Shown: in pieces, positions 1-44,000 of the stretch
Layout of the letters: every line of letters starts with the position of its first letter
Numbering within the stretch: the stretch's first letter is position 1
Assembly (NCBI GenBank): GCA_964478005.1
Contig: CAYZGJ010000001.1
Span: forward strand, 1 to 44,617
Direction: 5' to 3'
DNA: 44,617 nucleotides
Source of the DNA: an uncultured Candidatus Peribacteria bacterium
Lineage (GTDB): Bacteria; Patescibacteriota; Gracilibacteria; Peribacterales; Peribacteraceae
Translations under genes and position numbers: made by a program
Notes under the pieces: generated by a model
Databases searched by the model: none
What the model was told of the DNA's origin: nothing
What the model saw: the letters and a program-made list of their open reading frames with translations, nothing else

Positions 1-440
1 TGCCGTGGGATTTGCCGAGTGAGCTTCGCTACTTTCGCGATACGACGCGGGGGAAGCCCGTCATCATGGGGCGTAGGACGTACGATTCCATCGGGCGGCC
101 GATGCCGGGGCGGCACAACATCGTGGTGACGCGCGATGCCTCCTGGAAGGCGCCCGGGTGCGATACGGTGACCTCGGTGGAGGAGGCGATTGCGCTGGCG
201 ACGGAGGATGCCGCGGAGGAGATTTTCGTGATCGGCGGGGAACAGATCTACCGTTTGGCATTGCCGCTGGCCGACCGCATCTACCTGACGCGGGTCCATA
301 CGGTCATCGAGGACGGCGAGGCGTTTTTCCCGGAATTTGATACGTCCGCATGGGAGGAGATTCGCAATGATCATCATCCGGCGGACAGCGAGAATCCGAT
401 CGCGTATACGATCCACGTCTATCAAAGGAAATCGCCGTAG
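1..440 (+). CDS. folA: dihydrofolate reductase, 5'-truncated by window edge
   Basis: Frame starting at nt 3 reads PWDLPSELRYFRDTTRGKPVIMGRRTYDSIG...VIGGEQIY, the DHFR core. No true start lies in the window. The TAG stop at 438-440 lies inside a REP-like palindrome. Confidence 0.9.
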   Translation, partial: PWDLPSELRYFRDTTRGKPVIMGRRTYDSIGRPMPGRHNIVVTRDASWKAPGCDTVTSVEEAIALATEDAAEEIFVIGGEQIYRLALPLADRIYLTRVHTVIEDGEAFFPEFDTSAWEEIRNDHHPADSENPIAYTIHVYQRKSP

Positions 441-11299: not shown

Positions 11300-11374
11300 G
11301 GCGCCATCGTCTAGCGGTTAGGACGCCAGGTTCTCATCCTGGTAACCGGGGTTCGATTCCCCGTGGCGCTGCCA
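11300..11374 (+). tRNA. tRNA-Glu (anticodon CUC), CCA encoded
   Basis: Manual cloverleaf: acceptor GGCGCCA/TGGCGCT, D arm GTCT-AGCGGTTA-GGAC, anticodon arm CCAGG-TTCTCAT-CCTGG, variable TAAC, T arm CGGGG-TTCGATT-CCCCG, discriminator G, CCA. Confidence 0.92.
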
Positions 11375-15610: not shown

Positions 15611-16291
15611 TCAGGAGGCCAGCATCCACCGCACCGGATTGTCCGCGATGTAGGCGCGGATGCGATCCCGTTCCGCCTCATTCCGGATGATGCGGTCGTG
15701 GTACCGGGCTTGCCATGCGAAATCGATCCCGTGTTGCCGGGCGTACAGGGTGACGCCGATTTTGAATCCGCGGATGATGGATGCCAGGTTGCGGGATTGG
15801 GGACCGAACCGGTTGCATGTGCGTGTGTGTGGTGGGTGTTGGGACGCGGTGGGTGGGGGTGGTAAATGCGCGGTGGGTGGGGGCGGTAGAGACGCAAAAT
15901 CTTGCGTCTCTACCACGAAACACCCATGCGTTCGTACCATGGATTGCGGCGCATCGATGACCACGATCCCATGCACGTGGTCCGGCATGATGACGAATGC
16001 GTCCAATCGCACGAACGGGAAATGATCCGGAATGGCCATCTAACAGGCGTGCGCGGCCTCCCCCAAGGGCGTCCGGTGCATGCGTGTCGCGTCGCGGGGG
16101 TCATCGGGTCTGGTGTTCCAGGCCGTTTCATCAATGGTGCCGAACGAGGGACGTCGCCCTTTCGTGCAGATCGTCACGTAGTACGCGCCCTTCGATCCGT
16201 AATCCCATCGCGGATTGCGGGCGGAGGGGATGCGGTATGTGCCTCGGAACCATTCATCATTTGATCTATCCACATGTTCCATGTCCCTCAT
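15611..16291 (-). pseudogene. REP-associated tyrosine transposase (RAYT, IS200/IS605-like Y1 HUH) interrupted by in-frame TAG
   Basis: ORFs 16040-16291 and 15611-16039 are in the same frame, separated only by TAG (plus-strand cta at 16040-16042). HUH motif MPDHVHGIV. Tyr motif WQARYHDRIIRNE. The stop aligns with a Trp of the intact paralog at 25679-26269. Confidence 0.75.
15886..15913. repeat. REP-like palindrome GTAGAGACGCAAAATCTTGCGTCTCTAC inside the RAYT pseudogene
   Basis: 12-bp perfect stem with a 4-nt loop. Translated as VVETQDFASL in the RAYT frame. Near-identical copy at 43067-43094. Confidence 0.85.
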
Positions 16292-21651: not shown

Positions 21652-22800
21652 ATGTCGCTGCTCTCCCGTCTCGCATCCGTTCCTCCCGATCCCATCTTTG
21701 CGGTGGCGGCAGCCGCGCGGGCGGCGGGGCCGGAGGCCATCGATGCCTCCATCGGCGAGATCCGCGGCGAGGACGGGGGGCCGTTCTTCCTGCCCTCGAT
21801 GCAGGAGGCGCTGGGCCGGTGGGAACGGGAAATGGTGCCCCGGGCGGGCGGTTTCCCTCTGCCGCCCCTCTTGGGGGTGCCTGCGTTCCGCGCGTGCGTG
21901 ACCCGACTGGCGGCGGGAGACGACGTTCCGGTGGCATCCATCGCGGCGGCAGGCGGCACGGGAGCGCTCGCGCTTCAATTGAAGCTGCTGCAGCGGATGG
22001 GAATCCGGCGCGTGGTCCTGCCCGTCCCGACGTGGCCCGCGCACCGGCGGCTGCTGGGGGGCGCCGGGCTGGAAACGGTGTCCGTGCCCTTTGCGGCGGA
22101 TGATGCAGGCGTCGATGCCGTCGGGGATGCACTGACCCGGGAACGGCAACCGGCTGCCGCCCTCCTGCAGGTCAGCGGGCACAATCCGACCGGCTGGACC
22201 TGGTCCTCCGCGCAGTGGCAGCGGCTGGCTGCGGCGCTGGAAGGCTCCTCCTTTGTCATCCTGCTCGACTGCGCGTACCAGGGGCTGGGGTTGGGCGTCC
22301 AGGAAGACGTTGCTCCCGTGGGGATTCTGCGCAGAGCGGGCGTCGGGGTGTTTTTGGCGTGGTCCGCGTCGAAGAATCACACGATCTACGGTCTGCGCAC
22401 GGGACTGGCCTGCGCTCCCGTTTCCTCCGACGAAGAGCGCGCGCTGGTCGAAGGGCACTACGCCCAGTGCACGCGGGAGCTCTGGTCGGCCGCGCCCACG
22501 CCCGGCCAGCAGTTGGTTGCCCTGGTGCAGCAGGAGCACCGCGCAGCGTGGGAGGAGGAGCTCTCCGTGGCGCGCGCGCTCCTGCAGCGCAAGCGGGCGC
22601 TCTTGACGGAAGCATTTCCGGACTGGGCGGAGCGGCTGCGGGGTGCCGGTTTCTTCACGCAGCTGCCGCTGTCCCCCGACGCGATCGGCCGCCTGCGCGC
22701 GGAGAAGGTCTTCCTGGCCGATGACGGGCGGATGAATCTGGCGGGGGTGCCGATGGCGCGGTTCGATGCGTTGATCGAGAAGATACGCGCCATCCTGTAG
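21652..22800 (+). CDS. class I (AspC/TyrB-like) aminotransferase
   Basis: PPDPIFAV, SGHNPTG, LDCAYQGL, SASKNHTIYGLRTG (PLP-lysine motif), RMNLAGV. TACACT lies 7 nt upstream of ATG 21652. The TAG stop lies in a REP arm. Confidence 0.85.
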   Translation: MSLLSRLASVPPDPIFAVAAAARAAGPEAIDASIGEIRGEDGGPFFLPSMQEALGRWEREMVPRAGGFPLPPLLGVPAFRACVTRLAAGDDVPVASIAAAGGTGALALQLKLLQRMGIRRVVLPVPTWPAHRRLLGGAGLETVSVPFAADDAGVDAVGDALTRERQPAAALLQVSGHNPTGWTWSSAQWQRLAAALEGSSFVILLDCAYQGLGLGVQEDVAPVGILRRAGVGVFLAWSASKNHTIYGLRTGLACAPVSSDEERALVEGHYAQCTRELWSAAPTPGQQLVALVQQEHRAAWEEELSVARALLQRKRALLTEAFPDWAERLRGAGFFTQLPLSPDAIGRLRAEKVFLADDGRMNLAGVPMARFDALIEKIRAIL

Positions 22801-22968
22801 AGACGTTCCGGCGGAACGTCTTTACTGCATGGGACGAGAGAGATATCCGGCGGAACGTCTGTACTGCATGGGGCGAGAGAGATATCCGCTGCAACGTCTG
22901 TACTGCATGGGACGAGAGAGATATCCGGCTGCATGGGACGAGAGAGATATCCGCCGGAACGTCTCTAC
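22797..22968. repeat. composite REP array filling a convergent intergenic region
   Basis: Left end GTAGAGACGTTCCGGCGGAACGTCT, right end CCGGAACGTCTCTAC. In between, the core CTGCATGGGRCGAGAGAGATATCCG occurs at 22825, 22864, 22903 and 22929 (39-bp period, then 26). Confidence 0.9.
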
Positions 22969-25599: not shown

Positions 25600-25678
25600 A
25601 ACGGCATTTCTCTTTTTCCACGGAGAAAGGTGCTCTATAGAGCGTCTGTACGATTTGCTATTGCTATGATCGGGAACC

Positions 25679-26269
25679 ATGAAAGATGATTCCGTTCTCT
25701 TTCTCGGCCAATTCCGTTCTACATCGGCACGGTGTCCGCGGTGGGAGTATGCAAGCGTCGGGTGGTACCTTGTGACGATATGCACACAGGGAAGACGGCA
25801 TTGGTTTGGAGAAATTCGCAATGGTCGCATGTGCGTGTCGGCGATCGGATCCATCGTTTGGCAATGTTGGGAGGCCATTCCGCATCATCATCCTCATGGT
25901 ACGTTGGATCGGTGCATCGTGATGCCGGATCATATGCATGGGATCGTGCACATCATCGGATCATCTTCCGCATCGGGGAATGCATCGTTCATTGAACGTC
26001 ATTCTTCTTGTGATGTGGTAGAGACGCCCCATGGGGCGTCTCTACGATGTGCAAAGAATGACCTCCATTGGAAGAAGGGTGTTTTGGGTGTCATCGTCAA
26101 TCAATTCAAAGGGGCATGCACGACACACATACGACCCCATTGCTCCACATTTGCGTGGCAATCCCGGTTCCACGATCGCATCATCCGTGATAACGATGCC
26201 CTGGAATCCATGCGGCGGTACCTCGATGATAATCCCATGCAATGGGAACGTGATAGCGGCCGCACGTGA
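25679..26269 (+). CDS. REP-associated tyrosine transposase (RAYT), apparently intact
   Basis: WYLVTICTQGRRHWFG, HUH motif MPDHMHGIV, Tyr motif WQSRFHDRIIRD, YLDDNPMQW. AT-richer than neighbours. TGCTATGAT lies 8 nt upstream of the ATG. Confidence 0.8.
   Translation: MKDDSVLFLGQFRSTSARCPRWEYASVGWYLVTICTQGRRHWFGEIRNGRMCVSAIGSIVWQCWEAIPHHHPHGTLDRCIVMPDHMHGIVHIIGSSSASGNASFIERHSSCDVVETPHGASLRCAKNDLHWKKGVLGVIVNQFKGACTTHIRPHCSTFAWQSRFHDRIIRDNDALESMRRYLDDNPMQWERDSGRT
26018..26045. repeat. REP-like perfect palindrome GTAGAGACGCCCCATGGGGCGTCTCTAC inside the RAYT ORF
   Basis: 28-bp perfect palindrome, translated VVETPHGASL. Same element as 493-520. Confidence 0.9.
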
Positions 26270-43066: not shown

Positions 43067-43094
43067 GTAGAGGCGCAAAATCTTGCGTCTGTAC
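43067..43094. repeat. REP-like palindrome GTAGAGGCGCAAAATCTTGCGTCTGTAC
   Basis: Degenerate copy of 15886-15913. An additional half-site GCGTCTCTAC lies at 43107-43116. Confidence 0.8.
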
Positions 43095-43112
43095 CACCCA
43101 TATGCCGCGTCT

Positions 43113-44000
43113 CTACCGCCATTTCCAGAAATACCGCATCGCGCTCGCCAGGTGGATGCGCACCGTCCGTTTGGTGAAGATCGACAGGAATCCGCCCTCG
43201 CTCAGCCGTTGGTGGCCGTCCAACGCGCAGACCTGCGGATCGTAGACCACCCGCTTGCCCGCCTGCCACACCCTGCGGCAGAGATCCGTATCCTCGAAGA
43301 ACAAGAAGAAGCGCGGGTCGAATCCTCCCCACTGCTCATAGCATGACCGTTTCAGCAGGATGCACCCCCCCGCCAGCCAGTCGACATCGCGCGTGCGTCC
43401 GGGGTCGCCGTCCTCGCCCAGGGCGCGGGCCAGCCGTGCGCGGAAGAGGAAGCGCAGCGGCGTGCGCTTGATGAGGATGTCCGCGGGGCGGGGGAACGGG
43501 CGGCCGGAGGGGCGGATCGTGCCGTCGGGGTACCGCAGCTGCGGACCGAGGATGCCGATGGAGTCGTCGGCTTCCATGGTCTGCACCATCCGCTCCAGCC
43601 CGTCGGGCGGCAGCGTGACGTCCGGGTTGATGATGAGGAGGTACGTCCCCGTGGCATGCCGGATGCCCGCGGCGTTGCCCTGCCCGTAGCCCAGATTCTT
43701 CCGCGTCTCCACGATGCGTATCCCCGGCTCTTTCCCGAACGTATTGCGCAGCAGCCCGATGGAATCATCCTGCGAGTGATTGTCCACGATGATGATTTCG
43801 AGAAAAGTGTCAGGGTGAGTCCTTCGGCCCTGCTCAGGACAGGCCTGCCGAACCATGGATTGCTGTTGCAGCGCCCGCACGCACCGCACCGTGCGCCGGG
43901 CTTCCCAGGTGTTGAGGACGATGGCGGAGACGGAGCAATGGATAATGGATAATGGATAATGGATACTGACGAGGGTCCAATGATGAATGCCAACTGTCAA
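43113..44000 (-). CDS. family 2 glycosyltransferase
   Basis: SAIVLNTW...IIIVDNHSQDDS...GYGQGNNAG-like GYGQGNAAG...LLIINPDV...FFLFFEDTDLCRR. The only canonical start upstream of the first beta strand is TTG 44000, so the heptamer repeat falls inside the predicted N-terminus. Confidence 0.8.
   Translation of the reverse strand: MTVGIHHWTLVSIHYPLSIIHCSVSAIVLNTWEARRTVRCVRALQQQSMVRQACPEQGRRTHPDTFLEIIIVDNHSQDDSIGLLRNTFGKEPGIRIVETRKNLGYGQGNAAGIRHATGTYLLIINPDVTLPPDGLERMVQTMEADDSIGILGPQLRYPDGTIRPSGRPFPRPADILIKRTPLRFLFRARLARALGEDGDPGRTRDVDWLAGGCILLKRSCYEQWGGFDPRFFLFFEDTDLCRRVWQAGKRVVYDPQVCALDGHQRLSEGGFLSIFTKRTVRIHLASAMRYFWKWR
43937..43964. repeat. heptamer microsatellite (AATGGAT)x4
   Basis: Four perfect copies, translated SIHYPLSIIH in the GT2 frame. 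Confidence 0.95.

Follow-up and report, generated by a model that had tools for sequence, protein, structure and literature searches.

Introduction

REP sequences inside the coding region of RAYT genes have been described before. According to Quentin et al. [quoted passage not shown] These REPs are of a kind for which the authors defined the term "double foot" (their Table S1 includes GTAGAGAC… REPs); they occupy a variable beta3-alphaC insertion, which is peripheral in the authors' homology model, and were treated as insertions that probably affect activity little. RAYT group 4 of Bertels et al. (2017; PMC5581495), which corresponds to this subclass, is widely scattered and has few associated repeats. 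Down-regulation of RAYT expression by REP hairpins was discussed by Di Nocera et al. (2013; PMC3733652) with IS200 as precedent. No later literature testing the function of in-gene REPs was found.

Here we describe a stretch of 44,617 nt from an uncultured Candidatus Peribacteria bacterium (contig CAYZGJ010000001.1, referred to as the window), which carries two RAYT-like genes with palindromes in their coding sequences. The in-gene REP as such is already published (PMC6006769) and the present case is its rediscovery in a new host lineage. The genes of the window probably belong to TnpA_REP subclass 2.4/RAYT group 4, an assignment made from motifs, architecture and the REP feature. Beyond PMC6006769 go the occurrence of in-gene copies that are the only ones of their genome, the array-like character of the linker, and a premature TAG in two of the three genes of this genome.

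Results

The RAYT-like genes of the window and a third paralog

The assembly to which the window belongs comprises 1.13 Mb in 95 contigs with 61% GC and contains three paralogs of the gene, two in the window (Table 1) and one on contig C34, with pairwise protein identities of 35-44%. The HUH motifs of the three proteins read PDHMH, PDHVH and PDHMH, and among 80 homologous loci PNH.H is the most frequent form, with PDH.H present too. Their Y motifs are YLDDNP, YIADNP and YILDNP, while most homologs have YIxNNP; Y181, N185 and P186 are invariant or nearly so. A WQ motif, corresponding to the W94/Q95 region by which the GTAG guide is read, is present (WQSRFHDRII), and W160 and Q161 are invariant across 50 homologs. 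The relatives of gene 2 include 77 homologs with lengths of 170-230 aa.

Matches to family models stayed below threshold. NCBIfam NF047646 (REP_Tyr_transpos) gave 51-52 bits against a cutoff of 80 (E = 8.5e-14 for gene 2), and Pfam PF01797 (Y1_Tnp) did not match gene 2 and, for gene 1, stayed at 17 bits where 23 are required. Such scores are expected, since the subclass is distant from the E. coli type, and the proteins of the window were assigned to RAYT by their motifs, homologs and fold. For gene 2, modelled with AlphaFold (mean pLDDT 82.8), the top PDB match in Foldseek was 4er8_A (E = 3.4e-6, TM 0.52/0.61), followed by the IS200/IS605 transposases IS608 and ISDra2. The 4ER8 entry is the E. 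coli RAYT in complex with a REP hairpin.

The first-pass annotation, made from the letters of the window, had suggested that a structure model be used to see whether the palindrome segment is a surface loop. In the model of gene 2, residues 93-135, between the HUH strand and a helix formed by residues 136-151, have no secondary structure. The pLDDT is 44-54 over residues 101-130 and falls below 50 in the segment 111-122, which holds the palindrome peptide 114-122. According to this model the peptide is predicted to sit in a disordered surface loop.

Gene 1 is a pseudogene as assembled, and the C34 paralog has a single in-frame TAG as well, at about 2531-2533; both TAGs are located upstream of the HUH motif. 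Since each of these two genes is interrupted, gene 2 is the only intact paralog of the three. Nevertheless, the palindromes of both broken paralogs are still perfect. Recoding of TAG was ruled out as an explanation because TAG serves as a stop codon in neighbouring genes (e.g. the ORF ending at 440). About one fifth of the near-full-length RAYT matches in a sample of the phylum contain stops, which are of all three kinds, and the in-frame TAGs are therefore regarded as ordinary decay.

Table 1 Positions of REP elements and RAYT-like genes in the window
Feature	Position	Strand	Remarks
Extragenic subtype C copy	437-465	no strand	GTAGAGACGTTCCGACGGAACGTCTCGCC; type held in frame by the C34 paralog
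Extragenic subtype B copy	493-520	no strand	1 nt off the gene-2 type, one foot changed (…GTCTGTAC); -11.2 kcal/mol
RAYT-like gene 1	15611-16291	-	226 codons, one in-frame TAG; ORF pair 15611-16039 / 16040-16291
Duplicated 14-mer adjoining the gene-1 REP	15846-15883	-	PPPPTA encoded twice; belongs to the unstable linker
In-gene double-foot REP, subtype A	15886-15913	no strand	stem of 13 bp (one flanking G-C pair counted), loop of 4 nt; encodes VETQDFASL
In-frame TAG in gene 1	16040-16042	-	Trp at this site in gene 2 (CWEAIP vs C*MAIP)
Intergenic array of subtype C arms	22797-22968	no strand	one full REP and repeated right arms
Lone REP right arm	25632-25651	no strand	GCGTCTGTAC; about 30 bp upstream of the gene 2 start
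RAYT-like gene 2	25679-26269	+	196 aa; HUH at residues 85-87 (PDHMH), WQ at 160-161, invariant Tyr 181 (RRYLDDNP)
In-gene double-foot REP, subtype B	26018-26045	no strand	perfect 28-nt palindrome; read as VETPHGASL (residues 114-122)
Extragenic subtype A copy	43067-43094	no strand	convergent intergenic region; 2 nt off the gene-1 type; extra right arm 43107-43116

In-frame palindromes in the linkers of both genes

A GTAG-footed palindrome lies in frame within the linker of each gene, GTAGAGACGCAAAATCTTGCGTCTCTAC (subtype A) in gene 1 and GTAGAGACGCCCCATGGGGCGTCTCTAC (subtype B) in gene 2. Including the valine that precedes the peptides of Table 1, they are read as VVETQDFASL in the minus-strand gene 1 and VVETPHGASL in the plus-strand gene 2. 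REP-type palindromes following the HUH motif of both transposase genes had been noted in the first-pass annotation, and they were seen at exactly the positions it gave. Its further statement that they occupy the same protein position was borne out for the loop, which is the same, but not for the residue: VET follows the HUH motif by about 20, 27 and 29 residues in gene 1, gene 2 and the C34 gene, respectively.

The pattern GTAGAGACGC-N(2-12)-GCGTCTCTAC has exactly two matches in the whole window, which are these two palindromes, and none in 100 shuffles. Folded as single-stranded DNA, the in-gene hairpin of subtype A has a free energy of -16.0 kcal/mol (z = -8.6) and that of subtype B -14.1 kcal/mol (z = -5.8). 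The shuffles and the z-scores together rule out a chance origin of the palindromes. Neither hairpin is followed by a T-run, so that intrinsic terminators were excluded as well. A known RNA family was also considered; the sole Rfam match within the window is a tRNA gene at 11300-11371.

REP subtypes and their free copies in this genome

The C34 paralog holds a third palindrome, GTAGAGACGTTCCGGCGGAACGTCTCTAC, in frame within the same loop, where it is read as GVETFRRNVSTG. Three paralogs are therefore matched by three REP subtypes, each gene (3/3) having its own in frame. The proposal that each RAYT carries its own cognate hairpin within its ORF thus holds for all paralogs of this genome, as it does for most homologs elsewhere. 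We also confirmed that the subtypes of the two genes of the window, which differ, both exist as free copies (subtype B at the left end of the window, subtype A near its right end). Allowing up to 5 substitutions, about 6, 3 and 10 extragenic relatives of the three subtypes were detected; REP copies of the three subtypes number about 22 in 1.13 Mb. The free copies of subtypes A and B lie between genes or at a gene border and fold more weakly than the in-gene ones, at about -11 kcal/mol. REPs adjoin the C34 paralog, too.

The TAG or CTA of a REP foot provides the stop codon of neighbouring genes on either strand (437-440, 22798-22800, 43113-43115).

In free copies one foot often reads GTAC in place of CTAC (GTAGAG…CTGTAC), leaving the G of GTAG unpaired. 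Examples are the free copies of subtypes A and B listed in Table 1, C7:14886, C7:15117, C34:2099 and the extragenic family of genome G001. Among single changes at this foot position in 151 genomes, G was counted about 27 times, T 7 times and A twice (hand count), although the change to G is a transversion. In the present genome all in-gene copies (3/3) are symmetric, compared with 3 symmetric versus 7 asymmetric extragenic copies (p ~0.07, hand calculation). A rule by which extragenic copies have a single foot and in-gene copies a double foot was set aside as weakly supported, since symmetric copies dominate outside genes across the phylum sample (189 vs about 36).

Hairpins in the linkers of homologous genes

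The homolog set comprised 80 loci from named genomes of about 15 phyla, including Bacteroidota, Chloroflexota, Cyanobacteriota, Patescibacteria lineages, Planctomycetota and Pseudomonadota; the loci are best tblastn matches, and intact genes are therefore over-represented. Homologs had been proposed for a survey of in-frame palindromes at this loop. In 59 of the 80 loci the HUH-WQ linker contained a perfect hairpin whose stem measured 9 bp or more. Hairpin density was 3.65 per kb in the linker, 0.11 in the remaining gene and 0.25 in 763 kb of flanks. With patterns that demand exact feet, 36/80 loci had a complete GT[AG]G…C[TC]AC palindrome (28 or 29 nt), and four more had one with one or two mispairs. 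About 15 of the 80 homologs have no recognisable hairpin, which indicates that the element is dispensable.

Linker length varies from 41 to 121 aa and the distance of the palindrome from the HUH motif from 3 to 58 residues. The homologs have the outer stem GTAG(A/G)G(A/G)C in common, with GTAGAGAC, GTAGGGAC and GTAGGGGC as the double feet observed, and the inner stem differs by paired changes on both arms (GTTGCATGCAAC, GCAAAATTTTGC, AAGGCATGCCTT, GAAAAATTTTTC).

Cognate REPs occur within about 200 bp flanking the gene at 20 of 53 loci, and in one genome (G098) the in-gene REP is identical to the REPs flanking the gene. At locus L042, six identical double-foot palindromes (GTAGAGACGCGATGCATCGCGTCTCTAC) form a regularly spaced array, about 180 bp apart, 1.5-2.4 kb downstream of the RAYT gene; they are one compensated pair off the in-gene type of that locus. 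Locus L081 (G110:C3; locus positions 493-520 and 1212-1239), from a genome of the family to which the host of the window belongs, has the subtype B palindrome as an extragenic element some 400 bp upstream of its RAYT gene. The palindrome within this RAYT gene differs in type (GCGGCATGCCGC) and follows partial arm repeats.

Reading frame, conservation and inheritance of the palindrome

In 24 genes the codons of the foot are GTA-GAG (VE…SL), in 12 they are xGT-AGA (RD…VST), and in no gene is the foot in the frame that would read TAG. One and the same 28-mer encodes VETLHATSL in some homologs and RDVACNVST in others. As the observation that would speak for conservation at the protein level, the first-pass annotation had named the same peptide without palindromic DNA in homologs; the opposite was found, with palindromic DNA kept and peptide and frame varying. 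The element is conserved as DNA and not as a peptide motif. That VETxxxxSL is a functional peptide motif with the palindrome as its by-product was rejected, even though the VET… frame is used by all three paralogs of this genome, since the palindrome is read in two frames, the compensating inner-stem substitutions alter the peptide, and the model shows the segment as disordered.

In homolog pairs that agree at about 50% of amino acids and at 38-50% of third codon positions, 27-28 of the 28 palindrome nucleotides are the same, compared with 22-25 of 28 for the best other 28-nt window in the same pairs; as the pairs were picked for a shared palindrome type, the former identity is somewhat inflated. 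When palindrome types were placed on a protein tree built without the linker, 20 changes were required versus 30.1 ± 1.2 after shuffling, and 0 of 500 shuffles was as low. The type is thus inherited with the gene along the gene tree; related genes share labels, and the test therefore addresses inheritance and not co-adaptation.

Turnover of the linker between close relatives

Linkers differ strongly even between similar genes. The coding DNA to both sides of the linker is about 93% identical between loci L026 and L029, yet the linker of L029 exceeds that of L026 by more than 100 nt, within which lie one perfect and two decayed copies of the palindrome. The proteins of L020 and L077 are 79% identical and have the palindrome in common; the number of additional left and right arms differs, with extra left arms in L077. 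Partial arm repeats or low-complexity expansions were found in many linkers, among them the PPPPTA duplication in gene 1 and GIRDGAVGGVRDGAVGG in the C34 gene. Judged from these comparisons, the linker behaves like a small REP cluster that gains and loses arms and is held only to an open reading frame.

One and the same 28-mer, off-centre mismatch included, forms the palindromes of gene 1 and of the Kuenenia locus L065, but the two face opposite ways with respect to the direction of coding (CAAGATTTTG vs CAAAATCTTG). This suggests an inversion of the loop, an independent insertion or a parallel mutation.

In-gene palindromes in whole genomes and in the phylum

Five carrier genomes (G001-G005) were searched with a generic double-foot pattern. 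The 6.3-Mb genome G004 contains a single double-foot copy, which lies within its RAYT gene, and no relative of this copy was detected genome-wide at up to 3 mismatches over 22 nt. An in-gene copy can thus be the sole copy in a genome, with no extragenic pool. Genomes G001, G003 and G005 have 4, 7 and 4 double-foot palindromes, all of different types, with two per genome inside RAYT genes. For G001, a related extragenic family of at least 12 copies was found, one compensated pair off its in-gene type. The Kuenenia genome (G002) has 86 double-foot copies.

Double-foot palindromes were detected in 33 of 151 genomes of the phylum of the window (1-19 each), and the reversed pattern, used as control, matched in two of the 151 genomes, once each. 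A RAYT is present in 34 of the 151 genomes. Both occur in 28 genomes, palindromes only in 5, RAYT only in 6 and neither in 112; these overlap counts include related and therefore non-independent genomes. In two genomes the sole double-foot palindrome lies just upstream of the RAYT gene and not inside it (G081:C31:9377-9404 and G123:C49:10405-10432).

Discussion

We think it probable that the genes described here encode HUH/Y1 nucleases of subclass 2.4 with a cognate double-foot REP that resides in the gene, is inherited with it and is presumably the enzyme's own substrate. The in-gene hairpin would be the recognition substrate of the enzyme, as its GTAG foot and the cognate extragenic copies suggest. 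It would persist by inheritance with the gene and by local renewal through duplication and deletion of arms, possibly by the RAYT acting on its own gene, and the only apparent filters on the in-gene element would be those against stop codons and against loss of the reading frame. A resident copy would keep enzyme and substrate genetically linked and could, once transferred to another genome, give rise to an extragenic REP family there.

Three main observations favour a gene-resident, inherited element over repeated capture from an extragenic pool: an in-gene palindrome can be the only one of its genome, its sequence is conserved, and its type is passed on with the gene. Rapid local turnover shows that the element is remodelled in place as well, and turnover of this kind between close relatives equally fits plain re-insertion. 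The perfect palindromes in two broken genes fit persistence of the DNA without a working protein and speak against a need for continuous RAYT action.

That the in-gene REP is a selected cis element of subclass 2.4 RAYTs, either a master or seed copy or a feedback site within the ORF, is a possibility we advance tentatively, with somewhat less than even confidence. If this were so, long maintenance even without extragenic REPs would be accounted for, as would the match between enzyme and hairpin across horizontal transfers.

We regard the published reading, by which the tolerant loop is a passive hot spot where REPs from an extragenic pool insert repeatedly, without a role and without being inherited as such, as rather unlikely. 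It agrees with the treatment of the REPs as insertions of probably little impact on activity in PMC6006769. The variable distance from the HUH motif (3 to 58 residues) and the use of two frames even within one clade also fit insertion, as do the multiple and partial copies, the large linker differences between near-identical genes, the opposite orientation of the palindrome centre in gene 1 and Kuenenia L065, and the cognate REPs that adjoin the gene at 20/53 loci. However, G004 has no donor pool and the types of G001, G003 and G005 are singletons. Across phyla the type of palindrome goes with the gene tree, genes that have diverged at most of their synonymous sites still have identical palindromes, and the element is near-universal though neutral inserts should decay. 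In-gene types that have no extragenic relative and orthologous copies across deep splits, both partly shown, likewise argue against a hot spot.

Even less probable in our opinion is an autoregulatory site, at which the hairpin in the mRNA or the non-template DNA lowers RAYT expression or is bound by the RAYT as negative feedback. Hairpins of -14 to -16 kcal/mol as DNA are strong, the GTAG foot, which RAYTs recognise, is conserved, and the palindrome is more conserved than the coding DNA; down-regulation of RAYTs by REP hairpins was furthermore discussed by Di Nocera et al. (2013; PMC3733652). Nevertheless, without a T-run the hairpins are not intrinsic terminators, HUH enzymes act on single-stranded DNA while binding of RNA is not established for them, and about 15/80 homologs do without the hairpin. 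In the two pseudogenes, where regulation would be pointless, the palindrome remains perfect.

The gene-resident, inherited REP raises the question why, in many phyla, the target hairpin of a nuclease is retained in the coding sequence of the nuclease itself. A concrete mechanism for the origin of REP families and for their matching to RAYTs would follow if selection acts on the resident copy as a seed or feedback site. Handles for testing are the sole-copy genomes, the conservation of the palindrome above that of coding DNA, the inheritance of type and the array-like turnover of the linker. As a caution for annotation, stretches such as VETxxxxSL or RDxxxxVST in hypothetical proteins are translated REPs.

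Comparison with known systems

The IS200/IS605 TnpA proteins resemble the proteins described here in fold, catalytic motifs and recognition of DNA hairpins. Those elements differ in having subterminal hairpins that flank the gene and in occurring as multiple near-identical copies, whereas no flanking end hairpins or IS ends were found at the genes of the window and the paralogs are only 35-44% identical. The intragenic REPs and Rickettsia palindromic elements discussed in PMC3733652 are likewise short palindromic repeats tolerated in frame in a surface loop. They are scattered in diverse, unrelated host genes, while here the host gene is that of the element's own nuclease, the loop is the same throughout the subclass and the type tracks the gene phylogeny.

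A classical REP family, with more than 100 mostly extragenic copies per genome, is not matched by the about 22 copies of this genome or the 1-19 copies of carriers in the phylum. The E. coli REPtron (yafM, 4ER8, subclass 2.2) shares the HUH/Y1 fold and GTAG-footed cognate hairpins, with REPs adjoining the gene at some loci. REPs of E. coli are extragenic, bulged and present in hundreds of copies with a single foot; the hairpins described here are perfect and footed at each end, occur about 20 times per genome and include one copy within the ORF.

The closest likeness is to subclass 2.4, whose members have about 194 aa (196 aa in gene 2), no C-terminal tail domain and a WQ motif, a variable insertion between beta3 (HuH) and alphaC that forms a peripheral loop in the model, in-frame GT[AG]G…C[TC]AC palindromes located after HuH and before Y, and a patchy spread over many phyla with low REP copy number. 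Differences are the host, a Peribacteria/CPR genome of 1.13 Mb, and the motifs, which are DH[MV]H and Y[IL]xDNP here versus NH[IFV]H and YIxNNP as published. Furthermore, three divergent paralogs are present here, each with its own subtype and two with a premature TAG. Finally, in-gene REPs were treated as insertions in PMC6006769, whereas in the present analysis some in-gene copies are the only ones of their genome and are inherited with the gene.
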